Below are positions 4,219 through 38,132 of a stretch of DNA of 64,000 nucleotides, in pieces. Numbering within the stretch: position 1 is the first letter of the stretch; each line of letters begins with the position of its first letter. The notes under the pieces were generated by a model. The model had not been told where the DNA came from and did no database searches. It was given only the letters and a program-made list of their open reading frames with translations. The stretch is taken from sequence record NC_134264.1. One strand, given 5' to 3'. Source of the DNA: Escherichia phage Lindwurm. The position numbers and the translations under genes were made by a program.

Positions 4219-5595
4219 ATGACTATTGATATTAATAAGCTGAAAGAAGAACTTGGTCTGGGTGATCTGGCTAAATCTCTGGAAGGTCTGACCGCTGCTC
4301 AGAAAGCTGCTGAAGCTGAACGTATGCGTAAAGAGCAGGAAGAAAAAGAACTGGCTCGTATGAATGATCTGGTTTCTAAAGCAGTTGGCGAAGATCGTCA
4401 GAAGCTAGAAGAAGCTCTGGAACTGGTTAAATCCCTGGATGAGAAATCTAAGAAGAGCGCAGAACTATTTGCACAGACTGTAGAAAAACAGCAGGAAACT
4501 ATTGTTGGTCTTCAGGATGAAATTAAATCTCTGCTAGCAGCTCGTGAAGGCCGTTCCTTCGTTGGTGATAGTGTAGCTAAAGCACTGTATGGTACTCAGG
4601 AAGCTTTTGAAGATGAAGTTGAAAAACTGGTTCTTCTGTCTTATATGATGGAGAAGGATGTATTTGAAACTGAACATGGTAAAGCCCACGTTAAGGCTGT
4701 TAATGGTTCTTCTTCCGTTTCTATGTCTAGCGAAGCATATGAAACTATCTTCTCCACTCGTATTATCCGTGACCTGCAGAAAGAATTAGTAGTTGGCGCA
4801 CTGTTCGATGAACTGCCAATGTCCAGTAAAATTCTTACTATGCTCGTTGAACCAGAAGCTGGAAAAGCTACTTGGGTGGATGCTTCCAAATTCGGTACTG
4901 ACGAAACTGTTGGTGACGAAGTTAAAGGTACTCTGACTGAAATCAGCTTCAAAACTTACAAGCTGGCTGCTAAGTCCTTCATCACTGATGAAACTGAAGA
5001 AGATGCAATCTTCTCCCTGCTGCCTCTGCTGCGTAAGCGTCTGATCGAAGCACATGCCGTTTCTATCGAAGAAGCGTTTATGACTGGTAATGGTACTGGT
5101 CAGCCGAAAGGTCTGTTGACTCTGGCTAGTGAAGATAGTGCTAAAGTTACCACCGAAGCTAAAGCTGATGGTTCTGTACTAGTAACTGCTAAAACCATTT
5201 CTAAACTGCGTCGTAAACTGGGCCGTCATGGTCTAAAACTGAGCAAACTGGTACTGATCGTATCTATGGATGCTTATTACGATCTGCTGGAAGATGAAGA
5301 ATGGCAGGATGTTGCACAGGTTGGTAACGATGCTGTTAAACTGCAAGGTCAGGTTGGTCGTATTTATGGTCTGCCAGTTGTAGTTTCTGAGTACTTCCCA
5401 GCTAAAGCAGCAGATAAAGAATTCGCAGTTATTGTTTATAAAGATAACTTCGTAATGCCGCGTCAGCGTGCTGTTACTGTTGAACGTGAGCGCCAAGCTG
5501 GTAAACAGCGTGACGCGTACTACGTTACTCAGCGTGTTAACCTGCAACGTTACTTTGCAAATGGTGTTGTATCCGGTGCTTACGCTACCGCTTAA
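4219..5595 (+). CDS. major capsid protein (458 aa, T5 pb8-like)
   Basis: Length, N-terminal coiled-coil delta/scaffold-like segment rich in E/K, followed by strong terminator. Confidence 0.9.
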   Translation: MTIDINKLKEELGLGDLAKSLEGLTAAQKAAEAERMRKEQEEKELARMNDLVSKAVGEDRQKLEEALELVKSLDEKSKKSAELFAQTVEKQQETIVGLQDEIKSLLAAREGRSFVGDSVAKALYGTQEAFEDEVEKLVLLSYMMEKDVFETEHGKAHVKAVNGSSSVSMSSEAYETIFSTRIIRDLQKELVVGALFDELPMSSKILTMLVEPEAGKATWVDASKFGTDETVGDEVKGTLTEISFKTYKLAAKSFITDETEEDAIFSLLPLLRKRLIEAHAVSIEEAFMTGNGTGQPKGLLTLASEDSAKVTTEAKADGSVLVTAKTISKLRRKLGRHGLKLSKLVLIVSMDAYYDLLEDEEWQDVAQVGNDAVKLQGQVGRIYGLPVVVSEYFPAKAADKEFAVIVYKDNFVMPRQRAVTVERERQAGKQRDAYYVTQRVNLQRYFANGVVSGAYATA

Positions 5596-5615
5596 TACAG
5601 GCTTTTCAGCCGATA

Positions 5616-5640
5616 AGGAGAGCTTCGGCTCTCCTTTTTT
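5616..5640 (+). terminator. rho-independent terminator after major capsid gene (UUCG-loop hairpin + T6)
   Basis: AGGAGAGC-TTCG-GCTCTCCT followed by TTTTTT. Confidence 0.8.
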
Positions 5641-5654
5641 ATTGGGAAAAATAA
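5635..5654 (+). promoter_or_regulatory. conserved post-terminator motif copy 1 (TTTTTTATTGGGAAAAATAA), abuts ATG 5655
   Basis: Identical 16-mer TATTGGGAAAAATAAA also at 10645..10660; related copy at 14375..14392. Confidence 0.5.
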
Positions 5655-6167
5655 ATGCAAATCATCACAGCCGAAGATTATAGATTATATGGCGGTTTAA
5701 AACGACCTGAATTAGAATCTGGTGTAGAAATGATGATTACTGCTGCCAATGCGCTGATTACGAGCCTTCTAGGCATGGATGATGCTGATGTGGTAGACCA
5801 GTTAATCAATACAAAACCTACACGTAGGAAATATTTTCTGAGCTCACCATCTGCTACCTCCGTAACTAAAGTGACGATTAACGATAATGAGATTGACCCA
5901 GAGCAGTATAAGCTATACTCTGATGGTATTATCCTTCTCAAATTTAATCCTCCAGAAGGTTATATGGATGTAGCATATACACAAGGTGGATTCAATCCAA
6001 TGCCCGAAGATCTTAAGCTAGCAGCATGTATGCTAGTAGATCATTGGCATAAACAAGATTACCGCCAAGCTAAAACAATTGGTGGTGAAACAGTAACCTT
6101 CAATAATACTAAATCTGGTATTCCAGAGCATATTCGTACTATTATTGAAGTATATAGGAGAGTATAA
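5655..6167 (+). CDS. head completion / head-tail adaptor protein (putative)
   Basis: Position after capsid gene; 170 aa; function inferred from synteny only. Confidence 0.45.
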   Translation: MQIITAEDYRLYGGLKRPELESGVEMMITAANALITSLLGMDDADVVDQLINTKPTRRKYFLSSPSATSVTKVTINDNEIDPEQYKLYSDGIILLKFNPPEGYMDVAYTQGGFNPMPEDLKLAACMLVDHWHKQDYRQAKTIGGETVTFNNTKSGIPEHIRTIIEVYRRV

Positions 6168-6937: not shown

Positions 6938-7423
6938 ATGGACCATAGAACAAGTATTGCACAAGCTATGGTTGACCGAATCTCTAAACAAATGGATGGT
7001 TCTCAACCTGACGAATATTTTAATAACCTATACGGAAACGTTTCTCGTCAAACTTATAAATTTGAGGAAATACGAGAGTTTCCGTATGTGGCAGTTCATA
7101 TCGGAACTGAAACTGGGCAGTATCTTCCTTCGGGCCAACAGTGGATGTTTTTAGAACTTCCAATCCTGGTGTACGATAAAGAGAAAACAGACATTCAAGA
7201 GCAACTTGAAAAACTCGTAGCGGATATAAAAACCGTTATTGACACAGGTGGAAATTTAGAATATACTGTTAGTAAACCTAATGGATCGACCTTCCCATGT
7301 GAGGCAACTGATATGATCATTACATCAGTTAGTACAGATGAGGGTCTACTGGCCCCATATGGTTTAGCAGAAATAAATGTAACAGTGAGGTATCAGCCTC
7401 CACGTAGGTCACTTCGCAGATAA
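6938..7423 (+). CDS. tail completion/terminator protein (putative)
   Basis: 161 aa ORF immediately upstream of tail tube gene. Confidence 0.4.
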   Translation: MDHRTSIAQAMVDRISKQMDGSQPDEYFNNLYGNVSRQTYKFEEIREFPYVAVHIGTETGQYLPSGQQWMFLELPILVYDKEKTDIQEQLEKLVADIKTVIDTGGNLEYTVSKPNGSTFPCEATDMIITSVSTDEGLLAPYGLAEINVTVRYQPPRRSLRR

Positions 7424-7449: not shown

Positions 7450-8844
7450 ATGTCTTTACAACTATTACGTAATACTCGAATCTTCGTGTCTACGGTTAAG
7501 ACCGGTCATAATAAGACCAACACGCAAGAGATTCTAGTTCAGGATGATATTTCTTGGGGTCAGGACAGTAACTCAACAGATATTACTGTTAATGAAGCTG
7601 GTCCGCGTCCAATTCGTGGTTCTAAACGTTTTAATGACTCTTTAAACGCGGCTGAGTGGAGTTTCTCTACTTACATCCTGCCCTACATCAATAAAGAGGA
7701 TCAGAAGCAAATCGTTCCTGACTATATGTTATGGCATGCACTTTCTAGTGGTAAAGCTATTAACTTAGAAGGTAATACAGGGGCACACAATAATGAAGCT
7801 AACTTTATGGTTAACTTCAAAGATAACTCTTATCACGAGTTAGCAATGTTACATATTTATATTCTGACTGATAAAGCATGGAGTTATATCGATTCCTGTC
7901 AGATTAATCAGGCAGAAGTTAACGTTGATATCGAAGATATTGGCCGTGTAACTTGGTCTGGTAATGGTAACCAGCTTATTCCTCTGGATGAGCAACCATT
8001 TGACCCAGATGTAGTAGGTATTGATGATGAAACTTATATGACTATCCAGAGTTCTTATATTAAGAACAAACTTACTATCCTAAAAATTAAGGATATGGAT
8101 TCTGGTAAAGCATATGATATTCCTATTACTGGTGGTACTTTCACTATTAATAACAACATCACGTACCTAACCCCGAATATTATGTCTCGTGTTAATATTC
8201 CAATTGGTTCCTTTACTGGTGCTTTTGAATTAACTGGTTCATTAACTGCTTATCTGAATGATAAATCTCTTGGTTCTATGGAGCTATACAAAGATCTTAT
8301 CAAAACTCTGAAGGTAGTTAACCGCTTCGAAATTGCTCTAGTACTTGGTGGTGAATACGATGAAGAACGTCCTGCGGCTATTCTGGTAGCTAAACAAGCA
8401 CACGTTAATATTCCTACTATTGAAACTGATGATGTACTTGGTACTTCAGTAGAGTTTAAAGCTATTCCATCTGATCTGGATGCTGGTGATGAAGGTTACT
8501 TAGGCTTCTCTAGTAAATATACCAAAACAACTATTAATAACTTGATTGTTAATGGTGATGGTGCTACTAATGCTGTAACCGCAATTACTGTTAAATCTGC
8601 TGGTGATGCTACTACAGTAAACAACTCGGCTACTCTTCAAATGAGTGTTGAAGTTACTCCCTCTTCCGCAAAGAATAAGGAAGTTACTTGGGCTATCACT
8701 GCCGGTGATGCAGCTACTATCAGTGCAACCGGACTGTTAACAGCAGATGCTATTAAAACTGGTGCAGTTACTGTAGAAGCTACTGCTAAAGATGGTTCTG
8801 GAGTTAAAGGTACTAAACAGATTACTGTAACAGCAGGTGGTTAA
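7450..8844 (+). CDS. major tail tube protein with C-terminal Ig-like (Big_2-type) domain (464 aa, T5 pb6-like)
   Basis: Length; C-terminal TAITVKSAGDATTV...VTWAITAGDAATISATGLLTA...ITVTA Ig-like repeat. Confidence 0.85.
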   Translation: MSLQLLRNTRIFVSTVKTGHNKTNTQEILVQDDISWGQDSNSTDITVNEAGPRPIRGSKRFNDSLNAAEWSFSTYILPYINKEDQKQIVPDYMLWHALSSGKAINLEGNTGAHNNEANFMVNFKDNSYHELAMLHIYILTDKAWSYIDSCQINQAEVNVDIEDIGRVTWSGNGNQLIPLDEQPFDPDVVGIDDETYMTIQSSYIKNKLTILKIKDMDSGKAYDIPITGGTFTINNNITYLTPNIMSRVNIPIGSFTGAFELTGSLTAYLNDKSLGSMELYKDLIKTLKVVNRFEIALVLGGEYDEERPAAILVAKQAHVNIPTIETDDVLGTSVEFKAIPSDLDAGDEGYLGFSSKYTKTTINNLIVNGDGATNAVTAITVKSAGDATTVNNSATLQMSVEVTPSSAKNKEVTWAITAGDAATISATGLLTADAIKTGAVTVEATAKDGSGVKGTKQITVTAGG

Positions 8845-8848
8845 TTAA

Positions 8849-9748
8849 ATGTACTACTCTCTAATGAGAGAGTCAAAAGTTATAGTTGAGTATGATGGTA
8901 GGGTATTTCATTTTGATGCCCTATCAAACTATGATATACAGACTTCCTACGAGGAATTCAAGACTCTTCGTAGGACTGTTCATCGTAGAACTAACTATGC
9001 AGACTCTATTATAAATGCTCAAACTCCCTCTTCTATCTCTCTAGCAGTAAATTTCAGCAATACTCTTACGGAGGCTAACTTCTTTGAATGGTTAGGTTTT
9101 GATAGAAAAGGTAATACTTTCTTACTCCCACTATATAGCAATAATATTGAACCTATTATGTTCAATATCTATATAGTAAACAAAGATAATAACTGTGTAT
9201 ATTTTGAAAACTGCTATGTATCTACAGTAGATTTTTCTTTAGATAAGAATATACCAATTCTTAATGTTGGTATTGAGTCTGGGAAATTCTCAGAAGTATC
9301 TACATATAGAGAAGCAGCTTCTATTATACAGGGTGAAGTAATGTCTTACAGCCCAGTAATAGCTTCTACTAATGGTAGCATCTTACCCGGTCTTATTTCT
9401 GCCTCTTTATCTTTCCAACAGCAGTGCTCCTGGAGAGAGGATAAGAGTGTTTTTGATATAAATAAAATTTATAATAATAAAAGAGCCTATGTAACTGAAA
9501 TGAATGCTTCGGCAACCATTTCTCTGTACTACTTAAAACGTTTTGCAGGAGATATGGTTTATAATATAGAACCGGAGACAGATGTACCTTTAACGATAAG
9601 AAATAATAATATTTCTATAGATTTTCCTTCAGCACGTATTACAAAACGCCTAGAGTTCTCAGATGTGTATAGAGTTGAGTGGGATATTATACCTACTGCT
9701 TCTTCAGACCCAGTGAGAATAGATTTCTTTGGAGAAATTAAAAAATGA
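8849..9748 (+). CDS. tail protein (T5 p140-like, putative collar/tube-associated)
   Basis: 299 aa ORF between tail tube and chaperone genes; call by synteny. Confidence 0.45.
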   Translation: MYYSLMRESKVIVEYDGRVFHFDALSNYDIQTSYEEFKTLRRTVHRRTNYADSIINAQTPSSISLAVNFSNTLTEANFFEWLGFDRKGNTFLLPLYSNNIEPIMFNIYIVNKDNNCVYFENCYVSTVDFSLDKNIPILNVGIESGKFSEVSTYREAASIIQGEVMSYSPVIASTNGSILPGLISASLSFQQQCSWREDKSVFDINKIYNNKRAYVTEMNASATISLYYLKRFAGDMVYNIEPETDVPLTIRNNNISIDFPSARITKRLEFSDVYRVEWDIIPTASSDPVRIDFFGEIKK

Positions 9749-10149
9749 TTAATTTAAAAGATATTACTCTTGATACTCGTACTATTACCCTTTCCTACCC
9801 AGGTATGCCGAACTTTAAACTAGAACTTAACTATATGTCTCGTGCTACCTCTAAACGTGTTATTTCTTCTGCTAAACGCGATGAATGGGTTAACGGTACT
9901 TTGGTTCAGGTACAGGATGATGATAAGTTCATTGAAGCCTTCGTTGATGCTGCGATTAAAGGTTGGACTGGTTTGACTGTAGGTGACGTTGAAAAACTGA
10001 TGCTGATTGAAACAGATGCTGATCCTGAGACTGAAGTTCCTTTTAGTCGCGATAATGCTGTAATGCTTATGCAGAACTCTGCTGCGTTTGATTCTTGGAT
10101 CAACCAGACAGTGTTCCACTTAGACACTTTTCGTAGCTCAAAAGCGTAA
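9745..10149 (+). CDS. tail assembly chaperone (upstream ORF)
   Basis: Small acidic ORF directly upstream of tape measure; +1-frame ORF overlaps its 3' end. Confidence 0.55.
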   Translation: MINLKDITLDTRTITLSYPGMPNFKLELNYMSRATSKRVISSAKRDEWVNGTLVQVQDDDKFIEAFVDAAIKGWTGLTVGDVEKLMLIETDADPETEVPFSRDNAVMLMQNSAAFDSWINQTVFHLDTFRSSKA

Positions 10150-10210: not shown

Positions 10211-10579
10211 ATGACCAAACAACAATATTTAATACTTTGTGAGTCAATGGGTATAGAGCCGGATCCTAAGGCTATGCCCGTTGAACTTGAGGATTTTCCA
10301 CCTATTGTAGCTATTAGTATGAATATTTATAACAGTCTAATTGACTGTTTCATACCGGGTGACTTTCCTATTTTTATAGGTAAGGATAAGGCTGCATTAG
10401 GTGTTTTATTTGATATTTATGGGATTACTGATCCTATAGAAAAAGAATTTGTTCTACACATTATCAATATATTTGATGCTAAAGCTGTAGATGCTGCACG
10501 TAAACGTGCTGAGAAGCATAAACCGCAAAACGGAAGGATTCCTAACGTTAAGCCACATGCTAGGTCTCGCGCACGGTAA
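10211..10579 (+). CDS. tail assembly chaperone, downstream part (frame open from 10124; possible frameshift fusion)
   Basis: No Shine-Dalgarno before ATG 10211; reading frame is open from 10124 and overlaps 9745..10149 by 26 nt in +1 frame. Confidence 0.5.
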   Translation: MTKQQYLILCESMGIEPDPKAMPVELEDFPPIVAISMNIYNSLIDCFIPGDFPIFIGKDKAALGVLFDIYGITDPIEKEFVLHIINIFDAKAVDAARKRAEKHKPQNGRIPNVKPHARSRAR

Positions 10580-10614
10580 AAGTTTCCTCCAATGGGCGTT
10601 CCACGATGAGGCTT

Positions 10615-10645
10615 GGCTCTGGGTGATTTGCCCAGAGCCTTTTTT
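10615..10645 (+). terminator. rho-independent terminator upstream of tape measure gene
   Basis: GGCTCTGGG-TGATTTG-CCCAGAGCC followed by TTTTTT. Confidence 0.75.
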
Positions 10646-10660
10646 ATTGGGAAAAATAAA
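10640..10660 (+). promoter_or_regulatory. conserved post-terminator motif copy 2
   Basis: TTTTTTATTGGGAAAAATAAA, 2 nt before ATG 10663. Confidence 0.5.
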
Positions 10661-10662
10661 AC

Positions 10663-13600
10663 ATGACTGATAAGCTAATACGAGAATTACTAATAGACGT
10701 TAAACAGAAGGGGGCAACTCGTACTGCAAAGTCTATTGAAAACGTATCTGATGCGTTGGAAAATGCTGCTGCTGCTTCCGAACTGACAAATGAGCAGTTA
10801 GGTAAAATGCCCAAAACTCTTTATTCCATTGAGAGGGCAGCAGACAGAGCAGCGAAAAGTCTTACTAAAATGCAGGCAAGCAGAGGCATGCTTAGTGTTA
10901 CTAAATCTATAAATGATATAGGAGCTAAGTTAGATGATCTCGCTATTACAATGATTGAAGTAGCAGATAAGTTAGAAGTCGGATTTGATGGGGTTTCTAG
11001 ATCTGTTAAAACAATGGGTAATGATGTTGCAGCTGCAACAGAAAAAGTCCAGGATAGATTATACGATACTAATAGAGCATTAGGTGGCACAGCTAGAGGT
11101 TTTAACGATACTGCTGGTGCTGCTGGCAGAGCTTCTAGAGCTATTGGTAATACTTCTGGTTCCGCGCGCGGTGCAACTCGTGATTTTGCGGCAATGGCTA
11201 AGATCGGTGGTAGTTTACCTATTATGTATGCAGCTCTTGCTTCCAACATCTTCGTTTTGCAATCTGCATTCGAACAGCTTAAACTAGGTGATCAGTTAAA
11301 TCGTCTAGAAAAATTTGGTGTTATAGTAGGTACTCAGACAGGTACTCCTGTTCAGACCCTTGCTAGATCACTACAAGAAGCTGCTGGATATGCTATTTCT
11401 TTTGAGGAAGCAATGAGACAGGCATCTTCAGCATCTGCTTATGGATTTGATGCCGAACAACTTAATAAATTTGGTTTAGTAGCTCGTCGTGCGGCTGCTG
11501 TTCTTGGCGTTGATATGACTGATGCACTTAACCGTGTAATTAAGGGCGTATCTAAACAAGAAATCGAACTTCTGGATGAACTTGGTGTCACCATCCGTCT
11601 TAATGACGCATACGCTGATTATGTTAAACAGTTAAATGCTGCAAACACAGGTATAACATATAATGTTAATAGTCTTACCACTTTCCAGAAGCAACAAGCA
11701 TACGCTAACGCGGTAATTGCTGAATCTACTAAGCGGTTTGGCTACCTAGATGAAGTACTACGTGCAACTCCATGGGAGCAATTTGCTGCTAATGCAGATG
11801 CTGCACTAAGAAAAATACAACAAGCTGCTGCTAAGTATTTAGGGCCAGTAATTGATGCTATCAACACAGTATTTTATACATCTCAGGCTTCTATATCTGC
11901 TGAGGCAGCTAGAGCTCAAGAAAAAACTAATAGACAGATAGACCCTACCAACGTTGGTGCTGTTGCTTTAAGTTTAGCTGCTTCTGAAGAAGGCTATAAT
12001 AAAGCTCTAGATATGTATAAGGAATCTCTTGATAAGCGTAATAAGCTAAAATCTGAGTTCGATAAACGAATGGAACAAGCAGATTTCTATACAAAACTAG
12101 CTATACGTCAAGTTGGTGAAGGTATTCCTATTGGTCTTGCAGCAGCAGGTGCTTCGGAGGCCAATAAGCAATTTGTAGCAGAAACTGCAGCTATGGGTCT
12201 ACAAGTAACTAGACTTGGTAAGGAAGTAGAGGATTCTACAGAGAATCTCAATGCTTGGAAATCAGCGTATCAAGCTGCTGGAGCCGCTGCTGCAAAGGCT
12301 AGTCCAGAGTTTCAGAAGCAAATTAATCTACAGAGAGATACTACTGATCCTGATGCTGTATACGATTTTAACTCTACTGTATTAAAAGGACTAACTGAGC
12401 AGCAGAAAGCGTATAATCAGACTAAGAAAACTGCTAGTGACTTAGCTAATGATATACAGAACGTTGCTCAGAGTACAGATACTGCTGCTAAAACTAGTGC
12501 TACTTTAGCAGATGCTATAAAAAACATAGAATCTCTATCTCTAGGTACTGGTAAGAGTGCTGATGAGTACGTTAAAAATCTTAACCTAGGCTATAACACT
12601 CTGTCTGAAATGAAAACTGCGTCTCAGGCCTTATCTGAATATGTTAAACTAACTGGTAATGAAACTAAAAATCAGTTAGCAGTTCAACAGAAGATAGCTG
12701 ATGTATATAACCAAACTAAGGATAAAGAAAAAGCACAGGAAGCTGGTAGACGTTTAGAACTCCAACAGTTAGAAGAGCAAGAAACTGCTTTACGCCGTGT
12801 TCTTCAAACAAACCAGGGAAATAAAGCTGTTGAGAAAGAAATTGAAAAAATTCAGCTGGAGAAACTTAAACTCACCAATCAGGGTATGGAAGCTCAGAAG
12901 AAGGTCAAGGATTACACAGATAAAATCCTGGGTGTAGATCGTGAGATAGCTCTCTTAAATAACCGTACTATGACAGATACCCAGTACCGTCTAGCACAGT
13001 TAAATCTTGAATTGACCATTGAAAAAGAGAAGTATGAATGGTATACAAAACAAGCTGATAAGCAGAAAGAAGCTGAGCAATCTAGACGTGCTCAAGCACA
13101 GATAGAGCGTGAAATCTGGAAATTCCGCCAAGATCAGATTGCTTCAATGGCTGCTGGTAGAGAGGAAGAACAGCAAAGACAATTTACTGCTAAACCATTA
13201 ATGGGAAATGCGGAGCGCTTACAGGAACAGCTAAAATTATATGAAGACTTAAAGCAGAAAACATTAGGTAATGCTGCGGCACAAGCGGAATATAATAAAA
13301 AGATAGCTGAAACTAGGGCACAACTAGCAGGTTTAAGGGCACAGAGAAATGCGGAGATGCAAGCTTCTGTTGGATCTTCTTTAGGTGCTGTGTACACTCC
13401 TACAACTGGACTATCTGGAGAAGATAAAGATTTTGCTGATATGGGAAATAGAATGGCTTCTTATGATCAGGCAATTTCTAAACTATCTGAGTTAAATTCC
13501 GAAGCAACTGCTGTAGCTCAAAGCATGGGTAATTTAACCAATGCTATGATTCAGTTCTCTATGGGGTCTTTAGACACTACTTCCACGATCGCAGCAGGTA

Positions 13601-14343
13601 TGCAGACTGTGGCCTCTATGATTCAATATAGTACTAGTCAACAGGTTAGTGCAATTGATCAGGCTATTGCAGCAGAGCAGAAACGAGATGGTAAATCTGA
13701 AGCATCTAAAGCTAAACTGAAAAAGTTAGAAGCTGAAAAGCTGAAGATTCAACAAGACGCAGCTAAGAAGCAGATTATCATCCAAACTGCAGTAGCTGTA
13801 ATGCAGGCGGCAACAGCTGTTCCATACCCGTTCTCTATCCCTCTGATGGTAGCGGCAGGTTTAGCAGGTGCTCTGGCCCTCGCCCAAGCATCCTCTGCAT
13901 CGAGTATGTCGAGTATTGCTGATTCTGGAGCTGATACAACTAGTTACTTAACCTTAGGAGAGCGTCAAAAGAATATAGATGTGTCCATGTCTGCTAATGC
14001 AGGTGAACTATCTTATATTCGTGGCGATCAAGGTATAGGTAGTGCCAACTCTTTCGTTCCTCGTGCTGAGGGCGGTAATATGTACCCAGGGGTTAGTTAC
14101 CAAATGGGTGAACATGGTACAGAAGTAATTACCCCTATGGTTCCTATGAAAGCTACACCTAATGATGAGCTAAAAACCTCATCTAACTCAACTTCAGGAA
14201 GACCTATCATCTTGAATATTAGTGCTATGGATGCTGCAAGTTTTAGAGAGTTTGCTTCTAGTAATAGTGGTGCTCTAAGAGACGCAGTAGAATTAGCTCT
14301 GAATGAGAACGGTGCTAGTTTGAAAACATTAGGAAATTCTTAA
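10663..14343 (+). CDS. tape measure protein (1226 aa, T5 pb2-like)
   Basis: Length, extended coiled-coil/Ala-Gln-rich composition, hydrophobic segment near C-terminus, position. Confidence 0.9.
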   Translation: MTDKLIRELLIDVKQKGATRTAKSIENVSDALENAAAASELTNEQLGKMPKTLYSIERAADRAAKSLTKMQASRGMLSVTKSINDIGAKLDDLAITMIEVADKLEVGFDGVSRSVKTMGNDVAAATEKVQDRLYDTNRALGGTARGFNDTAGAAGRASRAIGNTSGSARGATRDFAAMAKIGGSLPIMYAALASNIFVLQSAFEQLKLGDQLNRLEKFGVIVGTQTGTPVQTLARSLQEAAGYAISFEEAMRQASSASAYGFDAEQLNKFGLVARRAAAVLGVDMTDALNRVIKGVSKQEIELLDELGVTIRLNDAYADYVKQLNAANTGITYNVNSLTTFQKQQAYANAVIAESTKRFGYLDEVLRATPWEQFAANADAALRKIQQAAAKYLGPVIDAINTVFYTSQASISAEAARAQEKTNRQIDPTNVGAVALSLAASEEGYNKALDMYKESLDKRNKLKSEFDKRMEQADFYTKLAIRQVGEGIPIGLAAAGASEANKQFVAETAAMGLQVTRLGKEVEDSTENLNAWKSAYQAAGAAAAKASPEFQKQINLQRDTTDPDAVYDFNSTVLKGLTEQQKAYNQTKKTASDLANDIQNVAQSTDTAAKTSATLADAIKNIESLSLGTGKSADEYVKNLNLGYNTLSEMKTASQALSEYVKLTGNETKNQLAVQQKIADVYNQTKDKEKAQEAGRRLELQQLEEQETALRRVLQTNQGNKAVEKEIEKIQLEKLKLTNQGMEAQKKVKDYTDKILGVDREIALLNNRTMTDTQYRLAQLNLELTIEKEKYEWYTKQADKQKEAEQSRRAQAQIEREIWKFRQDQIASMAAGREEEQQRQFTAKPLMGNAERLQEQLKLYEDLKQKTLGNAAAQAEYNKKIAETRAQLAGLRAQRNAEMQASVGSSLGAVYTPTTGLSGEDKDFADMGNRMASYDQAISKLSELNSEATAVAQSMGNLTNAMIQFSMGSLDTTSTIAAGMQTVASMIQYSTSQQVSAIDQAIAAEQKRDGKSEASKAKLKKLEAEKLKIQQDAAKKQIIIQTAVAVMQAATAVPYPFSIPLMVAAGLAGALALAQASSASSMSSIADSGADTTSYLTLGERQKNIDVSMSANAGELSYIRGDQGIGSANSFVPRAEGGNMYPGVSYQMGEHGTEVITPMVPMKATPNDELKTSSNSTSGRPIILNISAMDAASFREFASSNSGALRDAVELALNENGASLKTLGNS

Positions 14344-14350
14344 AACTGGA

Positions 14351-14377
14351 GGAGGACTTTGAGTCCTCCTTTTCTTT
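14351..14377 (+). terminator. rho-independent terminator after tape measure gene
   Basis: GGAGGAC-TTTGA-GTCCTCC followed by TTTTCTTT. Confidence 0.75.
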
Positions 14378-14392
14378 ATGGAAAAATAAAAA
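14375..14392 (+). promoter_or_regulatory. conserved post-terminator motif copy 3 (TTTATGGAAAAATAAAAA)
   Basis: Variant of the motif, here ~60 nt upstream of ATG and followed by a sigma70-like promoter. Confidence 0.45.
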
Positions 14393-14396
14393 TTTC

Positions 14397-14425
14397 TTGA
14401 TAAAATTTTCTAATACTATTATAAT
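14397..14425 (+). promoter_or_regulatory. sigma70-like promoter upstream of distal tail protein gene
   Basis: TTGATA, 17 bp spacer, TATAAT; then AAAGAGGAGAAATTAACTATG ribosome-binding region. Confidence 0.6.
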
Positions 14426-14452
14426 ATTGTTATTAAAGAGGAGAAATTAACT

Positions 14453-15067
14453 ATGAGATTACCAGACCCATACACGAATCCAGAACTTTCAGGATTAGGA
14501 TTCGAAAGTGTTAACCTGATTGATAATGACCCAGTAATTCGTGATGAGTTACCAAATGGTAAAGTTAACGAAGTTAAGGTATCTGCTCAATACTGGGGTA
14601 TAAATATTTCTTATCCAGAATTATTTCCAGATGAATATAATGTTCTAGATGCTTTTATTCTAGAATACAAAAGGACTGGTAGTTATATAGATGTTATATT
14701 ACCACAATACGAAGCTTTTAGGGTTAGAGGTAATACTAGTCTAGTAAATATACCTGCTGGACAGAAGGGTTCTAATATAACTATGGATACAAAAGGACTT
14801 CTTATCGGTACTCCAAAACCGGGGGATCTATTTAAGCTATCTAACCATCCAAAAGTATATAAAATAACATCATTCAATAAATCAGGCAATACGTGGTCTA
14901 TAAACTTATACCCTGATTTATTTATAACTACTACTGGGACTGAGAAACCAGTGTTTAACGGAATACTATTTAGAACAAAACTCATGAATGGTGATGCTTT
15001 CGGGTCTACATTAAATAATAACGGAACATATTCCGGCATCTCATTAAATTTACGGGAAAGTTTATGA
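14453..15067 (+). CDS. distal tail protein (204 aa, T5 pb9-like)
   Basis: Position after tape measure, before baseplate hub; length. Confidence 0.7.
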   Translation: MRLPDPYTNPELSGLGFESVNLIDNDPVIRDELPNGKVNEVKVSAQYWGINISYPELFPDEYNVLDAFILEYKRTGSYIDVILPQYEAFRVRGNTSLVNIPAGQKGSNITMDTKGLLIGTPKPGDLFKLSNHPKVYKITSFNKSGNTWSINLYPDLFITTTGTEKPVFNGILFRTKLMNGDAFGSTLNNNGTYSGISLNLRESL

Positions 15068-25373: not shown

Positions 25374-26245
25374 TGTTCTGCAATCTCCAAAATATCTTTT
25401 GTAAACTTATCTAATACATCTTGACCTACAGCAGCAATAGCGTCTACACAGTAGGTTGGTAAATCAACCAGAATTAGGTTTCGGTAAAGCAATTCTTCCG
25501 AAGCATTTAAATTCTGTATATACTTCTGTTTTCCGGGCAAGGGAAGCTGATCAATAATATCCAGAACGTTACCAAATTCACGAATAATATTATACCCGCG
25601 TTTTGCTCCAATACCTTCAACACCACGGATATTATCCCCTAAATCACCCATAATTGCTTTTAGGGAGATAAACTGCTCTACATCGTCAACATTATGATGC
25701 TCATACATATCACGAAGATGGTATTCACGACGTGTTGTGAAAGAGAATCGAGAAACTTTATCAGTTAATAAAGTATCCCAGTCACCATCAGTAGAAATCA
25801 ACCAAACGTGATCATACAGATGTCCAATGAGTTTAACGATATAAGCCGCCATATCATCTGCTTCTACACCACGAATAGTGAATGTTGGGAATGTAGTTTC
25901 ACATAATTCGAAAGCATCTTTCAAGTACTCGAAGAACTGCTCATCTAACGCTTTCTCCTCTTCCGTGCGCTGAGAGTATTTCTCATCTCGATTCCCTTTA
26001 TACTCGGGGAGATGCTCTAAGCGGAATGCGGACTTCCCTTTATCTCCTAAAACTATTGTGGTTCTAGCAGAATAAGATTTTGCTAGAGATTGAATAGTGG
26101 AGACATAACTTGAGGCAAATGGTTTTTTACTATTGTTATGCTTGAAGCGAAAGCCTAAGTTAGTTCCATCGACAATCATTAGGTTACGACGGGAAGCCAT
26201 TTCAGCTTCCTCTTCTTCAATAAATTTTCCCCAGGATTTACTCAT
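25370..26245 (-). CDS. flap endonuclease / 5'-3' exonuclease (291 aa)
   Basis: N-terminus MSKSWGKFIEEEEAEMASRRNLMIVDGTNLGFRF matches T5 D15 exonuclease as I recall it; FEN acidic residues present. Confidence 0.9.
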   Translation of the reverse strand: MSKSWGKFIEEEEAEMASRRNLMIVDGTNLGFRFKHNNSKKPFASSYVSTIQSLAKSYSARTTIVLGDKGKSAFRLEHLPEYKGNRDEKYSQRTEEEKALDEQFFEYLKDAFELCETTFPTFTIRGVEADDMAAYIVKLIGHLYDHVWLISTDGDWDTLLTDKVSRFSFTTRREYHLRDMYEHHNVDDVEQFISLKAIMGDLGDNIRGVEGIGAKRGYNIIREFGNVLDIIDQLPLPGKQKYIQNLNASEELLYRNLILVDLPTYCVDAIAAVGQDVLDKFTKDILEIAEQ

Positions 26246-26727
26246 TATTTAATTAAGTCCTCAACAGATGCATGATGTAGCCACGGCTCAAATAAACCAA
26301 TTACGATTTCCATGTCTTTCTTATTTAACACCATATGGGTACGACTCATTAAGTTGTCAACCATCGGGTCTGAGCTATCCAAAGCTATTAACCACTGTCC
26401 TCTGTCTTTTTTGAATATTAATGCAGGTTTGGAGTTCATCTGCTCACCCTCACGTGAGCACTGCTGCCACCACTTCTCTAGAGTGGATTCACCAACATTA
26501 AATAAATTACTTGATATATTATCATCTTTATACCACTTAACTTCGAAGCAGTATTTACTAATGTGTCCGCTTTGTGGTGGAAGGTAGATGTCACCTTTCA
26601 GTCCGTGGCTCTGGCCAAAAGCACCAGAACCAGGAACACGTTCCCACTCAAGACCTGTACGTTCACGTAAAATATCTCTTACCTGATATTCACCACGTTT
26701 ACCTTTCTCTCTACTATCTACGGCCAT
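26245..26727 (-). CDS. Hjc-like Holliday junction resolvase / PD-(D/E)xK nuclease (putative)
   Basis: KGKRGEYQVRDIL...GSG...GDIY...CFEVK pattern resembling archaeal-type Hjc resolvases. Confidence 0.5.
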   Translation of the reverse strand: MAVDSREKGKRGEYQVRDILRERTGLEWERVPGSGAFGQSHGLKGDIYLPPQSGHISKYCFEVKWYKDDNISSNLFNVGESTLEKWWQQCSREGEQMNSKPALIFKKDRGQWLIALDSSDPMVDNLMSRTHMVLNKKDMEIVIGLFEPWLHHASVEDLIK

Positions 26728-26730
26728 GTT

Positions 26731-30721: not shown

Positions 30722-30751
30722 ATTATACTAGATTTCGAGAGAATTTAGCAA
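30722..30751 (-). promoter_or_regulatory. sigma70-like promoter (TTGCTA-18-TATAAT)
   Basis: Read on - strand; followed by conserved CATAAATT leader. Confidence 0.6.
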
Positions 30752-30822: not shown

Positions 30823-30851
30823 ATTATACATCATTTATGAGCTATTGCCAA
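30823..30851 (-). promoter_or_regulatory. sigma70-like promoter (TTGGCA-17-TATAAT) overlapping helicase stop
   Basis: Read on - strand; leader CATAAATTTGAGAGAG. Confidence 0.6.
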
Positions 30852-32187
30852 ATGCAATTTTAGCTAATTGAACTGCTTTCTCCGGAGTCATAGTAATAGT
30901 TTTCCACCCGTTATTACGATATACTGCCATACGTCCAGAAGCCTGTCTTAGTCCAGTGCCGCCTTTCATAATTAAATCTACAACAATAGGGTCGAGTTTA
31001 CCATCGACAATACGTTGAACACGTCCTGCAAGCTGTTCAATGAGAGATTCATTATTAATGAGACTTCCCATTATTAAACAAGATAGCTCATTAAGGGAAA
31101 TACCTTCAGAGAAGATACTTTGAGCGGCTGCAAGTACACAAGGTCCACCTTTTGCTATATCTTCCTGAATTTTTAATCGGTCATCTAAGTGGGTTGCCCC
31201 TATAATTTCATGTGTTGTAACACCACGCTGTGCAAGAGCTTCTAGTACTGTTTGGATTAGCTCTGTTCTGTCACTTACAATGAGTACTTTATGCCCCATA
31301 TTCACGTATAAATGTGCTAGATTTATAATAGTCTCTCGATATTCAGGATGGTTGTACACATCATTAGCACGTAATGCCCACGGTACGTTTTGGTTTCCTG
31401 ATAACTCAACAGGCACGGAGTACCTATGGATTGTAGGTGCAACAGTATTATTAACCGGTGGGCTAAAGATCTTATATCCAAAGAAATCTTTGAACATAAC
31501 TTGTAGACCATCTTTTCGTTTTAATGTACCGGATAGTCCAATCTTATAGCGAGCACATGATATTTCTAGGAAGTTAGTGAAAGTTGTAGCCACACAATGG
31601 TGAACCTCATCAACTATAACAGTACCGAATACTTTAGAAAGATTATTCGCATGTTTATTCACTGTTTGAATATTACTGACCACAATTGGTGGATCAATAT
31701 TGTATTTCCCAGAACCTATGATGCCTGGTTCAAACCCAAACCATTTACGAACTTCTGCCGCCCACATCTCACGAATGGATGTATTCGTACATATTACCAG
31801 AGTTTTCTGTCCAAATTTATACGCAAGTGCAAGGGCTAAGATAGTTTTACCAAACCCAGGCTTACCATTAATAATACAGGTATCATCACACTCTTCATAT
31901 ATTGGGAGCTGGTCTTCTTCACGCAGTTTGAACTTAGGTTTTGGTATATCTACTGGAGCTAATGTGCGTTTATCGACTAATTCGTATTTTACTCCTTTAG
32001 CATCTAGTAAATCCAGACGCGTAATAGGAATCCACTTAATCTCTTTGGCAACAACACCACTATTCTTATACATAATAGGGTATTTACTAGTCATTGTCTC
32101 TATGTGATAAGTGGTTTGCTTACTACAATAATCCCAAAGTTCATCATCGGGCTTGAAATAGGCTTTATTAGATATAACAACCTTCAT
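30835..32187 (-). CDS. SF2 DNA helicase (450 aa)
   Basis: Walker A GKPGFGKT, DEVH box (VIVDEVHH); length matches T5 D10 helicase as recalled. Confidence 0.8.
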   Translation of the reverse strand: MKVVISNKAYFKPDDELWDYCSKQTTYHIETMTSKYPIMYKNSGVVAKEIKWIPITRLDLLDAKGVKYELVDKRTLAPVDIPKPKFKLREEDQLPIYEECDDTCIINGKPGFGKTILALALAYKFGQKTLVICTNTSIREMWAAEVRKWFGFEPGIIGSGKYNIDPPIVVSNIQTVNKHANNLSKVFGTVIVDEVHHCVATTFTNFLEISCARYKIGLSGTLKRKDGLQVMFKDFFGYKIFSPPVNNTVAPTIHRYSVPVELSGNQNVPWALRANDVYNHPEYRETIINLAHLYVNMGHKVLIVSDRTELIQTVLEALAQRGVTTHEIIGATHLDDRLKIQEDIAKGGPCVLAAAQSIFSEGISLNELSCLIMGSLINNESLIEQLAGRVQRIVDGKLDPIVVDLIMKGGTGLRQASGRMAVYRNNGWKTITMTPEKAVQLAKIAFGNSS

Positions 32188-32681
32188 AATTTTATTCTAA
32201 GTCTAGGAATTTCAGGCTCCTCTTGATGGACTTGGTAAATAACAGGGCTATTATTTACCAGAATATAGCTTATATAAGCTGGAACATAGGATAATACAAA
32301 TGGATATGGAACTTTAGCTACATAGCATTGGTATTTTCCGTTATAAATTCTAGCTGAATGCAAAACTTTAGAGGTGACAACATCATAGAACGTAGTTTTC
32401 TTCCAGTTAATAAGATTTCCATCAGAATCTATAAATTGGCTACGTTTTGACCCAACTAGTTGAGACAACATTGATATTCTACCTCTAATAGGATAGAGCT
32501 TGTATGGTAATTCTTTCCGTTTCTCAAATAGAATAAGTCTACGTTGAGAAAATGTGCCAGGCAACTTCCTGTTATCTAGCACATATTTATTATATCTTGT
32601 TGTAATTACGGAATAATCACCTTCTTGCTCAATTGATACAAACGCCCGTAAAGCATATATGGGCAATTTGAAATCAAGCAC
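32184..32681 (-). CDS. hypothetical protein (165 aa) between polymerase and helicase
   Basis: Start overlaps polymerase stop, stop overlaps helicase start; no motif recognised. Confidence 0.5.
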   Translation of the reverse strand: MLDFKLPIYALRAFVSIEQEGDYSVITTRYNKYVLDNRKLPGTFSQRRLILFEKRKELPYKLYPIRGRISMLSQLVGSKRSQFIDSDGNLINWKKTTFYDVVTSKVLHSARIYNGKYQCYVAKVPYPFVLSYVPAYISYILVNNSPVIYQVHQEEPEIPRLRIKL

Positions 32682-35690: not shown

Positions 35691-36581
35691 TTATACCAAA
35701 TCTTTAAGCGATTCAGCAACTAAAATTTCAATACGTTTTGCTAACATATCAATTTCATCTTTGTTTAAATCACCCGGATCTTTGCCTTCGGGCAGAAGAA
35801 AGTTAGCAACTACAGGTGTTAAACGCGTTTTTGTACGAATTAACTTGGCCAATGCTTGTGCAGCTTTATTACCAGAAGCATCATTATCTAGTAAGATAAC
35901 AACAACTTTTACACCAGCAATAATATAAGGACTGAACTTATCTGCAATGTTATCCGAAGTAAACTGATGTGTACCAAAGCAGCAAGAAGCATAGTCTATA
36001 CCATTATCCTCTAGGTTCAGCATATCAAAGATACCTTCAACTAGAATAAGAACTGGAGTATTATATCGTACAGGGAAAATCGGTGGTGAAACTTGTTTTG
36101 GTTTTACTAAGTATTTAGGAGGGGCAGAACTGTTTATAGAACGACCCAAAAATAGGATATTGCGTCCAACAGCATCTGTGATTGGAAATACAATTCTGCC
36201 TTCCCAGTCTGCTTGGTGTTGGAAAGCAAAATATTTCTTCAAGGTCTTAGAACTTATACCTCGGAAATCACCTTCGAAAAGGTAAGCAGATTCAGGAATT
36301 GCAAGATTCGTTGATCCATTCCTAATCTCTGAAATCTTTTTGCGTACTTGCGATAGCCTTGGGGACTGTAGGTACTGAGTCTCATTAAAATAATGGTAAA
36401 TGCTCGGTATACCTTTACCGAAGCCACAACTCAAGCAGTGCATAATACCTGTTTCAGGATCAATACGCAAACTTGGGTGTTTATCGTCATGATCTGGATT
36501 GAGACAACAGATGAGGATGTCCCCACCTGTGTCTTTATATTCAATGCCTTTCAGATCAAGTAGTTCTGTTATTCTACTCAT
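35691..36581 (-). CDS. DNA primase (DnaG-like, zinc finger + TOPRIM)
   Basis: CLNPDHDDKHPS...HCLSCG zinc-binding motif; TOPRIM-like EGIFD and LLDNDASG. Confidence 0.8.
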   Translation of the reverse strand: MSRITELLDLKGIEYKDTGGDILICCLNPDHDDKHPSLRIDPETGIMHCLSCGFGKGIPSIYHYFNETQYLQSPRLSQVRKKISEIRNGSTNLAIPESAYLFEGDFRGISSKTLKKYFAFQHQADWEGRIVFPITDAVGRNILFLGRSINSSAPPKYLVKPKQVSPPIFPVRYNTPVLILVEGIFDMLNLEDNGIDYASCCFGTHQFTSDNIADKFSPYIIAGVKVVVILLDNDASGNKAAQALAKLIRTKTRLTPVVANFLLPEGKDPGDLNKDEIDMLAKRIEILVAESLKDLV

Positions 36582-38050
36582 ATATCGCTGGCCTGTTCAC
36601 CTGTTGAATTTTCAGCTTTGTCTTTCTTAGCACGTTTAGGTTGAGCCGGCTTATCCTTCTCAATAGGGATAACGAACTCAGCTTCCATTTGAGATATATC
36701 TTCCATTGCTAGGTTGGTAGTGTTATCCATTCGCAGAGTTTCCCAGTTCATTTTAGGCATAAACTTCACGCTATCAGAAGAACGAGTCTTAACGAAGTCA
36801 AACATAATAGCACCTTGACCATTATCAGCTTTTGCAGCGTTAAGATTAGCAGCCATGTCTGCGGAATCAAGAATCCCCTTTGACATACGTGTTCTACCAT
36901 CTTGATCGATCTGGTAAGGAGCTACACCAGCCACGTTATGTTTCTGGCAGATAGATTTGAAAGACGAGCTAACAACCATCTGTTCTTTCCAGTCATACAT
37001 ATCAATGGTTTTAGAGTCTGGAAGTCTGGTTTGGTTAATATAGTCCAGTAAAGCTACTGTAACTTTATCTCCATATCTAGCAACTAATTTATTTAATTCT
37101 ACGTCAACTGTTGTAATAGACAGCTCAGGGTCATAAACAATAATCATAGGAGTATGTAGCTCATACCCTTCTATTAGCTTACTTTCCATATCGTAGAAAT
37201 CACTCATCTTAGCCATTGTGTACTGTTTAACGAAGTTATCGAAAAGCTCTTCACCACCATTAAACATTCTAGCTCTAGTTCTGGCTAATCTCAACAGAGC
37301 TGCACCTTCTAGAGTATTATTACGCATTGCTAGTGCTGATACACCAGCTAACATGGCTAGATTACGCCTAAATACTTCATGTTCTTTCATCTCAATTGAG
37401 AAGTATGGAGCAATATCTCCATTCAAATATTGCTGAACCTGTATGTTTGAACAGATAATGGATTTACCAGTACCACGCCAACCACCAAGCAGTAACGTTT
37501 CTGTGCGAGCTAAACCAATTTGAGCGTCGAACTCATTACAAATACCAAGAGCGATTAAGTTCAGTTTGGTATCTTCTTCTCTCTGGAAAATACGCATGTT
37601 ATCTGCGTTGAATACTTTTCCAGTATTCGTTACTTTCTCTTCTAATTTTAAGTGAAGGGAGGCAACTCGGTTGAGAATTTCTCCCTGATCCAGCATTGTT
37701 AAATCTTGAAGCACGTCTGTTTCTAGAAGCTTCAGGAACAAATCCTGCGTATATTCGGCCTCTAGGACTTCAAGTGCCTGTTCCATGCTCACTTCTGGAA
37801 TTTGAGTGTTAGCTAAGACGACTAGAGCTTGAGAAAGGCGGGCGTTCCTATTAGCTTCAAGCATAAGTGCGTCAATGGACGGCATTGTGTTATATTTTTT
37901 ATAATAATTCTGGACGGCTTGGTAAATTGAGGAGAAAGCGTCATTAAAATGATCTTTATGCAGTTTTGAGAATGTTTCCAATGCTATTTGCTTCTGTTCG
38001 GAAGCTAGAAGCATCTTCAACACTACAGCTTGCACGTTAAACAAGGTCAT
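36578..38050 (-). CDS. DnaB-like replicative helicase
   Basis: Walker A GGWRGTGKS, RecA-like C-terminal domain; start moved to ATG 38050 preceded by AAGGAGA. Confidence 0.8.
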   Translation of the reverse strand: MTLFNVQAVVLKMLLASEQKQIALETFSKLHKDHFNDAFSSIYQAVQNYYKKYNTMPSIDALMLEANRNARLSQALVVLANTQIPEVSMEQALEVLEAEYTQDLFLKLLETDVLQDLTMLDQGEILNRVASLHLKLEEKVTNTGKVFNADNMRIFQREEDTKLNLIALGICNEFDAQIGLARTETLLLGGWRGTGKSIICSNIQVQQYLNGDIAPYFSIEMKEHEVFRRNLAMLAGVSALAMRNNTLEGAALLRLARTRARMFNGGEELFDNFVKQYTMAKMSDFYDMESKLIEGYELHTPMIIVYDPELSITTVDVELNKLVARYGDKVTVALLDYINQTRLPDSKTIDMYDWKEQMVVSSSFKSICQKHNVAGVAPYQIDQDGRTRMSKGILDSADMAANLNAAKADNGQGAIMFDFVKTRSSDSVKFMPKMNWETLRMDNTTNLAMEDISQMEAEFVIPIEKDKPAQPKRAKKDKAENSTGEQASDI

Positions 38051-38132
38051 TCTCCTTTGCACGCTTTCGTGCCTTCTAAATGCAAAAAGGGGAAGGAGCA
38101 TAGCCCCCTCCCCTTAGGTTTAATTTACCAGA

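Follow-up and report, generated by a model that had tools for sequence, protein, structure and literature searches.

In bacteriophage T7, the terminator T-phi lies after gene 10, the major capsid gene and the most abundant structural gene, and the essential genes downstream of it, which have no promoter of their own, rely on read-through. Inefficient terminators of this kind balance gene dosage in T7 and also in LUZ7 (PMC9163698). In T5-like phages, AAAAATT at -43 has been described as a feature of T5-type promoters in the AKFV33 paper (PMC3326045), and the AKFV33 GenBank record quotes the T5-type promoter consensus of Wang et al. 2005.

Two further kinds of signal bear on the gene junctions considered here. 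One is the RNA of lambda nut (boxA/boxB) and of HK022 put, where a structured RNA lies just 5' of a terminator that polymerase must pass before an essential gene can be transcribed. The other is the Shine-Dalgarno (SD) ribosome-binding site (RBS) set in an A/U-rich context. Ribosomal protein S1 binds U-rich leaders, and A-rich spacers reportedly serve as RBS enhancers, in work attributed to Boni in 1991, Komarova in 2005 and Vimberg in 2007.

Two junctions in the late gene cluster examined here have a T-phi-like layout, with a predicted terminator after an abundant gene and downstream genes that lack their own promoter. They differ from the T7 arrangement in that the design is used twice and would act on host sigma-70 polymerase instead of a phage polymerase, and in that the terminator U-tract abuts the SD of the next gene with zero spacing; read-through of the terminator is predicted. 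The sequence analysed, referred to as the window, is a 64-kb stretch of the genome (approximately 110 kb) of a Tequintavirus (T5-like) that shares approximately 95 % nucleotide identity with AKFV33 and IME178. Homology and annotation place the late structural genes on the + strand from position 1 to about 24865.

An earlier note, made from the letters of the window, had drawn attention to a motif that lies behind terminator hairpins at three late-gene junctions, ending 0–2 nt before the ATG at two of them and lying approximately 60 nt upstream at the third, and this description agrees with the sequence. At the first two junctions (sites 1 and 2) the string CCTTTTTTATTGGGAAAAATAAA, 22–23 nt in length, is present at 5633–5655 and at 10638–10660, in each case 3' of a terminator hairpin, and the start codons that follow are the ATGs at 5655 and 10663. 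Searching the window with the 16-mer TATTGGGAAAAATAAA found exact matches at 5640–5655 and 10645–10660, and a search with TTTTTTATTGG allowing up to one mismatch found no occurrence in the window beyond sites 1 and 2. When gene-upstream regions of the window were compared in 1596 pairs, the longest shared string (22 nt) was that of sites 1 and 2, and the runner-up pairs share strings of 15, 13 and 13 nt only. Site 3 (14375–14390), which is 60 nt upstream of the ATG at 14453, agrees with the 16-mer at 13 of 16 bases, and a repeat search of the window groups the three copies as a single family, D9. However, with up to three mismatches allowed, four hits to the 16-mer were found where 2.0 are expected by chance. 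Hence, significance is confined to the two exact copies, and the likeness of site 3 is at the level expected by chance in A/T-rich sequence.

When the remaining 48 kb was searched in a near-identical genome, no additional copy was found. The exact motif is thus limited to late junctions because it marks two orthologous junctions only, and to this extent, across the window and the other 48 kb, the earlier description of a motif confined to late junctions holds. It does not extend to the layout, as the early region also includes terminators that abut a start codon, once with TTGGGA-N7-ATG. Both sites are common in sequenced phages, a 46-mer at site 1 being matched at 99 % identity or more by 358 phage records and an 86-mer at site 2 by 325.

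The features in and around the three sites are listed in Table 1. The repeat can be decomposed into parts, and the anatomy and conservation of these parts can be followed through the relatives of this phage. In our assessment it is probable that the motif is a composite of adjoining ordinary expression signals, rather than one element.

Table 1. Features of the late gene cluster at and around sites 1, 2 and 3
Feature	Position	Strand	Basis or remarks
Major capsid protein gene	4219..5595	+	Homology/annotation; stop codon 5593-5595
Small hairpin GGCU-uuuc-AGCC in the capsid 3' UTR	5600..5611	+	Folds
Predicted terminator hairpin T1, AAGGAGAGC-UUCG-GCUCUCCUU	5615..5636	+	-14.5 to -15 kcal/mol, z = -4.5
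U-tract TTTTTTATT of T1 (motif 5' half)	5635..5643	+	Kept in 11/12 lineages; inside terminator features of relatives
Weak SD GGGA of the head-tail adaptor gene	5644..5647	+	Last G to ATG 8 nt
A-rich spacer AAAATAA before ATG 5655	5648..5654	+	Spacer style common to capsid, tail tube and many other genes
Head-tail adaptor p144 gene (170 aa)	5655..6167	+	170 residues agree with PMC11313276
Tail terminator protein gene	6938..7423	+	Homology/annotation
Promoter-like TTGACA-17-TATACT inside the tail terminator gene	7239..7267	+	211 nt before the tail tube gene
Tail tube protein gene	7450..8844	+	Homology/annotation
Two tail chaperone reading frames	9745..10149, 10211..10579	+	Stop codon 10577-10579
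Non-coding block TTTCCTCCAATGGGCGTTCCACGATGAGG (29 nt), chaperone stop to T2	10583..10611	+	Conserved, T5-like-specific
Predicted terminator hairpin T2, GGCUCUGGGU-gauuu-GCCCAGAGCC	10615..10639	+	About -19 to -20 kcal/mol, z = -5.4
U-tract TTTTTTATT of T2	10640..10648	+	Inside terminator annotations of relatives
Weak SD GGGA and spacer AAAATAAAAC before tape measure ATG 10663	10649..10662	+	11 nt from G-run to ATG
Tape measure protein pb2 gene	10663..14343	+	Homology/annotation
Predicted terminator T3 hairpin and T-rich tail TTTTCTTTAT, 3' of the tape measure gene	14348..14379	+	Hairpin 14348-14372, about -15 kcal/mol
A-rich -43/UP-like region GGAAAAATAAAAATTTC (the 'variant motif')	14380..14396	+	Likeness to other promoters in the window
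Predicted sigma-70 promoter TTGATA-17-TATAAT, baseplate genes	14397..14425	+	11/12 consensus positions
Strong SD GAGGAG of the distal tail gene (ATG 14453)	14438-14443	+	-9.1 kcal/mol
Distal tail protein gene	14453..15067	+	Homology/annotation

The first half of the motif, TTTTTTATT, is the U-tract of a predicted Rho-independent terminator. The T1 and T2 hairpins begin 19 and 35 nt, respectively, past co-oriented stop codons, and both have the make-up of an intrinsic terminator, namely a stable G+C-rich hairpin and then a T6ATT tract. T1 is labelled as a terminator in the GenBank records of AKFV33, Spivey, Slocum and KEY, and T2 is likewise labelled in the records of relatives. The annotated terminators stop at ...TTTTTTATT in AKFV33, Spivey, Slocum and PR1, and those of KEY reach 2–3 bases beyond TTTTTTATT. 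Because RNAalifold applied to the site 2 junction missed even the terminator, MAFFT having misaligned the loops, sequences were instead folded one at a time. In these per-sequence folds, the stems from phages of Klebsiella, Proteus, Vibrio and Erwinia differ in sequence yet still pair, with GGCUCUGGG/CCCAGAGCC on the one hand and GGCCUAGGG/CCCUAGGCC and GCUCUGAGG/CCUCAGAGC on the other. The last two represent compensatory changes in the T2 stem of relatives, and the T1 stem of Vibrio phage JSF10 also includes compensatory changes.

Each terminator has a further element on its 5' side. In relatives, the small hairpin in the capsid 3' UTR has swapped pairs (GGCU/AGCC, GGCA/UGCC, UUGGC/GCCGA). 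The 29-nt block between the chaperone stop codon and T2 is nearly invariant from the phages of E. coli to those of Proteus and Providencia, and when IMG/VR was scanned for this block outside the T5-like phages only chance hits in G+C-rich coding DNA were recovered. The block was also examined as a mini-ORF or other coding sequence, a reading that was rejected in view of a non-conserved ATG and of a 2-nt indel in an Enterobacter phage. In the centroid fold of the window the block pairs with the U-tract and SD; as folds of the other lineages do not consistently show this pairing, it was rejected as unsupported, and no consistent fold of the block itself was found across lineages.

The second half of the motif is, from its position and complementarity, the RBS of the next gene, made up of a weak SD, GGG(A), an A-rich spacer and the ATG. 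The G-run is complementary to the 3' end of 16S rRNA and holds a conserved position before real genes (those for adaptor p144 and pb2), and its distance from the ATG is 5–11 nt in all of the lineages compared. In the records of Spivey and Slocum, GGGT or GGA directly after TTTTTTATT is labelled as an RBS. In Vibrio phage JSF10, GGG gives way to GGAGG at site 1 and to AGGAG at site 2, and at site 2 of Enterobacter phage KKP_3711 the GGG beside the U-tract is lost and AGGTGA is found nearer the ATG. This canonical replacement and this relocation, together with the narrow range of distances, identify the G-run as an SD. Though it was claimed in the earlier note that these genes have no canonical SD, the GGGA/anti-SD duplex has a predicted energy of -4.2 kcal/mol, and what stands of that claim is that the SD is weak, ranking 45–46 of 56 genes (median -6.15) and so still inside the span of values seen for genes of this phage.

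The same components are found at other genes. GGGA-N7-ATG is used elsewhere in the window, at 15064 and 40934, and A-rich spacers of the AAAATAA type precede most genes of the phage, including ttggagaaaaataataATG at 38133(-) and gattaggagaaaataattaaATG at the tail tube gene. In close relatives the number of G's and the length of the spacer vary (GG, TTAGG; spacers from AAAATAA to AAAAATAAAAT). The combination of an SD and an AAATAA-type spacer is the usual form of RBS in this phage family. Hence, the proposal that the motif is an unusual A-rich translation initiation region is supported for sites 1 and 2 in all but the word unusual, as the style is family-wide. Sites 1 and 2 resemble other SD-type RBSs in an A/U-rich context in the placing of the G-run, in the U-rich tract 5' of it and in the A-rich spacer, but differ from them in that the U-rich tract doubles as a terminator tail, and an enhancer effect here is putative. 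The U-tract may double as a U-rich landing site for S1 that aids the weak SD. Re-initiation or translational coupling at the start codons of the two genes was also considered and seems improbable, since 59 and 83 nt, including a strong hairpin, separate them from the preceding stop codons.

Site 3 is, unlike sites 1 and 2, the tail of T3 running into the A-rich upstream region of a predicted sigma-70 promoter. T3 is labelled as a terminator in AKFV33, Spivey, Slocum, PR1 and KEY, the promoter is labelled in the records of AKFV33 and PR1, and the layout is kept in all lineages. The upstream region is 86 % A+T, which fits a UP-like element, and the hexamers are 17 bp apart, as expected of such a promoter (17 +/- 1 bp). 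The promoter is preceded by AAAAATAAAAATTT, as are other promoters in the window, and the A-rich upstream regions of the window promoters form repeat families D2, D3 and D5. The early-region promoter at 30751(-), which belongs to D3 and reads GAAAAATAAAAATTTTAG-TTGCTA, has GAAAAATAAAAATTTT ahead of its -35 and hence the site 3 string is not specific to late genes. At site 3 the relatives retain the A-tract and the promoter but not the G's, the Erwinia phage having atgCAAAAATAAAAAAgtttaTTGATA. The likeness to T5-type sigma-70 promoters with an A-rich -43/UP element applies to site 3 only, sites 1 and 2 being without a promoter.

The late-promoter element suggested earlier thus survives as a UP-like region at site 3, but not at sites 1 and 2 and not as a late-specific signal, given the same string at the early promoter 30751(-). 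The three sites also cannot be grouped as copies of a single element, as the earlier note had done. Sites 1 and 2 are exact copies in which a terminator tail meets an RBS, whereas site 3, alike only at chance level, is a signal of another type, the upstream region of a promoter.

In order to follow the junctions more widely, 28 close relatives from IMG/VR and 11 further Demerecviridae genomes (phages of Klebsiella, Serratia, Proteus, Providencia (two), Enterobacter, Erwinia, Pantoea, Obesumbacterium and Vibrio (two)) were compared, 12 lineages in all. In 11 of the 12, both junctions, namely major capsid to head-tail adaptor and tail chaperone to tape measure, are ordered hairpin, TTTTTTATT, G-run, short spacer and ATG, and the identity of the adaptor proteins falls as low as 25–29 % across the lineages compared and to 29 % among the 11. 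The exception is Vibrio phage VCPH, which has diverged at both junctions, with a T5orf172-family gene inserted at the first and only the hairpin, a T-run, AAGGAAAG and the ATG retained at the second. In T5 itself, a 250-aa CapR/zinc-finger ORF is inserted exactly between the TTTTTTATT of T2 and the GGG, and pb2 has a separate RBS, acAGGAAAAcattagATG (AGGAAAA), after the inserted ORF. Both Vibrio phages have an extra gene 3' of T2. Hence, the two halves of the motif need not be contiguous.

A 20-nt consensus, TTTTTTATTGGG(A/T)AAAATAA, is common to both junctions across lineages. Over the 45 nt that precede the adaptor ATG, the Klebsiella, Serratia, Proteus and Providencia phages are 82–98 % identical to the window, compared to 55–72 % over the flanking coding DNA, and site 1 is 76 % conserved compared to 58–68 % at other intergenic RBS regions. 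This constraint exceeds what a generic U-tract and SD would strictly need. Motif scans of IMG/VR recovered almost exclusively T5-like contigs, and the metagenome scan found no informative distant relatives. The single exception was a 42.6 kb siphophage contig in which a hairpin, the identical 23-mer and an ATG lie before a non-homologous tape measure gene. The parts of the motif are ordinary, and the GenBank records of the relatives already annotate these bases as terminator and RBS.

The likely function of the two junctions is dosage control. T1 would end the capsid transcript and T2 that of the tail tube and chaperone genes. The gaps between the terminators T1 and T2 and their following ATGs are too short for a promoter, and the promoter scan predicted none in them. 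The adaptor gene, and above all the tape measure gene, would hence need terminator read-through, and the read-through transcripts would then be translated from the weak SD. We infer that partial termination and weak translation together lower expression at the points where virion copy number drops, the step-downs being from capsid to adaptor and from tail tube and chaperones to tape measure, which we take to be a low-copy component (a trimer). The virion includes 775 capsid, 12 adaptor, 6 tail terminator and 120 tail tube subunits (PMC11313276). The promoter inside the tail terminator gene would raise transcription again for the tail tube protein, and T3 together with the site 3 promoter would restart transcription for the baseplate genes. 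The cluster would then consist of capsid, T1, the low-copy connector genes, the internal promoter, tail tube and chaperones, T2, tape measure, T3 with its promoter, and baseplate. The intragenic promoter is part of the operon context and lies outside the motif; it was found at -198 to -214 in 10 of the 10 lineages checked, Vibrio phages included. Literature searches found no transcript maps or data for T5-family phages. Both hairpins look strong, and a factor could take part in the read-through.

If so, the whole junction (hairpin or block, terminator and U6AUU-GGG-A-rich stretch) might form a dedicated cis-regulatory site that is recognised by a factor of phage or host origin, with factor-dependent antitermination, a translational operator that co-regulates adaptor and tape measure, or a 3'-UTR-derived small RNA as candidate roles. 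The presence of the same 20-nt consensus at both junctions in several lineages points in this direction, as do the conservation of the site 1 junction above that of the flanking genes, the family-specific 29-nt non-coding block directly 5' of T2 and the predicted complete dependence of tape measure expression on passing a strong terminator. Nevertheless, we consider such a site unlikely, since T5 tolerates an insertion between the halves of the motif and the family tolerates loss or relocation of the G-run, a variable spacer and replacement by a canonical SD. Moreover, Rfam searches at both gathering and permissive thresholds returned no family match and nothing relevant at the junctions, pairing between block, U-tract and SD is inconsistent across lineages, and inspection by eye revealed no pattern resembling boxA/boxB or put. 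The likeness to lambda nut and HK022 put is a lead only, as no sequence or structural match was found at the T5-like junctions. A version in which the junctions are family-specific RNA modules, each consisting of the small hairpin or the 29-nt block UUUCCUCCA..GGGCGUUCCACGA, the terminator and U6AUU-GGG, with a phage or host factor, or an abundant sRNA derived from the 3' UTR and having a CCUCC seed, tuning read-through or translation of the adaptor and tape measure genes, is similarly improbable.

The two copies might instead be alike through recent duplication or gene conversion, with no functional constraint in common, and their exact identity over 22–23 nt is indeed far above that of any other pair of upstream regions. 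This is very unlikely, as the two junctions are conserved independently of each other at orthologous positions family-wide, Providencia phages having a site 1 motif identical to that of the window, as variants at one site in close relatives, including those at site 1, are not mirrored at the other, and as the two sites have hairpin and flanking sequences that are unrelated. Chance similarity of low-complexity A/T-rich sequence does account for site 3 (the four hits compared to 2.0 expected), but as an explanation for the repeat as a whole it has very little to recommend it, because the exact copies are an extreme outlier among the upstream regions and hundreds of genomes retain them; for sites 1 and 2 the comparison of orthologous positions already refutes it. 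Finally, a late-promoter element or transcription start signal at sites 1 and 2 draws on the fact that the look-alike at site 3 does sit upstream of a promoter. To this we give next to no credence, because no -35/-10 pair is predicted at 5600–5660 or 10600–10665 and because, with the ATG 0–2 nt after the motif, a transcript starting there would lack an RBS; in addition, T5 late genes use sigma-70 promoters (PMC7472727).

On the composite reading, in which a terminator tail adjoins the RBS of the next gene, annotators should not list the repeat as a novel motif of late genes, nor as a new promoter or antitermination signal. For the engineering of T5-like phages, the insertion of cargo at these junctions appears to be tolerated, as in the natural insertions in T5 and the Vibrio phages. 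More broadly, the comparison provides a coherent model in which T5-like phages may use terminators and promoters along a single late gene cluster to fit expression to the stoichiometry of the virion.

A promoter inside the tail-terminator-protein gene, the non-coding sequence before the two late terminators and the genes found at these junctions were compared across T5-like phages; the features of the Lindwurm sequence are listed in the table. The promoter, a near-consensus sigma-70 sequence, lies 211 nt upstream of the tail tube gene. Each of the 10 Demerecviridae lineages checked, the Vibrio phages included, has it at a position from -198 to -214. The annotated record of the near relative AKFV33 carries no annotation of a corresponding promoter.

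The block before T2, the terminator after the tail chaperone genes, is near-invariant in the enterobacterial, Proteus and Providencia T5-like phages, in which the flanking genes are approximately 50-65 % identical. It is specific to this family and includes an anti-SD-like CCUCC. The small hairpin before T1, the terminator after the major capsid gene, is retained in relatives with altered pairs (GGCA/UGCC and UUGGC/GCCGA), and in a Proteus phage the capsid stop codon lies within its loop. Some close relatives (L002, L005 and L025, at ~9920-10000) have additional sequence separating T1 from the capsid gene; in these the motif, namely the U-tract joined to a weak SD and A-rich spacer, is TTTTTTATTGGAAAAATAA or TTATTATTAGGAAAAATAA. 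The T-run has grown to 13 T in L013.

Features of the Lindwurm sequence
Feature	Position	Strand	Location or note
Small hairpin GGCU-uuuc-AGCC	5600-5611	+	between capsid stop codon and T1
Near-consensus sigma-70 promoter TTGACA-17-TATACT	7239-7267	+	within tail-terminator-protein gene 6938..7423
29-nt non-coding block TTTCCTCCAATGGGCGTTCCACGATGAGG	10583-10611	+	between chaperone stop codon and T2
SD-less leader CTTAGAATAAAA(C/T)	26727-26745 and 32187-32205	-	immediately 5' of ATG; early genes 26245..26727, 30835..32187
Early terminator gaggggcttcggcccctttctttttaaccaATG	29558-29525	-	at start codon, without SD
Early hairpin AAGGGGAGGGGGCTATGCTCCTTCCCCTT	38115-38087	-	holds SD and ATG of gene 36578..38101
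Early terminator agcccctatatggggcTTTTTGTGTATTTGGGATATGTAAATG	41282-41240	-	at start codon

Genes have been inserted at both junctions. In phage T5 (L023 15020-15772) a 250-aa ORF, with a CapR homology domain and a treble-clef zinc finger, separates the T2 U-tract from the RBS of the tape measure gene (pb2), the insertion falling exactly at the boundary of the two. An unrelated gene of ~250 aa, for which Pfam gave no match, occupies this junction in the Vibrio phages JSF10 and VCPH. In VCPH the capsid and adaptor genes are also separated by a T5orf172-family gene.

A similar junction was seen in a 42.6 kb siphophage contig from IMG/VR that is unrelated to these phages (L088 3105-3146; also L053), where a hairpin, gccgcttttaagcggc, and then the identical motif TTTTTTATTGGGAAAAATAAATG lie directly 5' of a tape measure gene. 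Homology of this gene to pb2 was not detectable (BLASTP E = 0.047). Just upstream, on the minus strand, is a zinc-ribbon membrane gene. Terminators abutting or overlapping start codons also occur in the early region of the window (three examples), and the leaders of two early genes share a 13-nt identity.

The second chaperone ORF (10211..10579, + strand) has no SD (-0.1 kcal/mol), and its AKFV33 annotation reads 'No ribosome-binding site'. The missing SD is consistent with a putative programmed frameshift from 9745..10149, resembling the programmed-frameshift expression of lambda G/GT.
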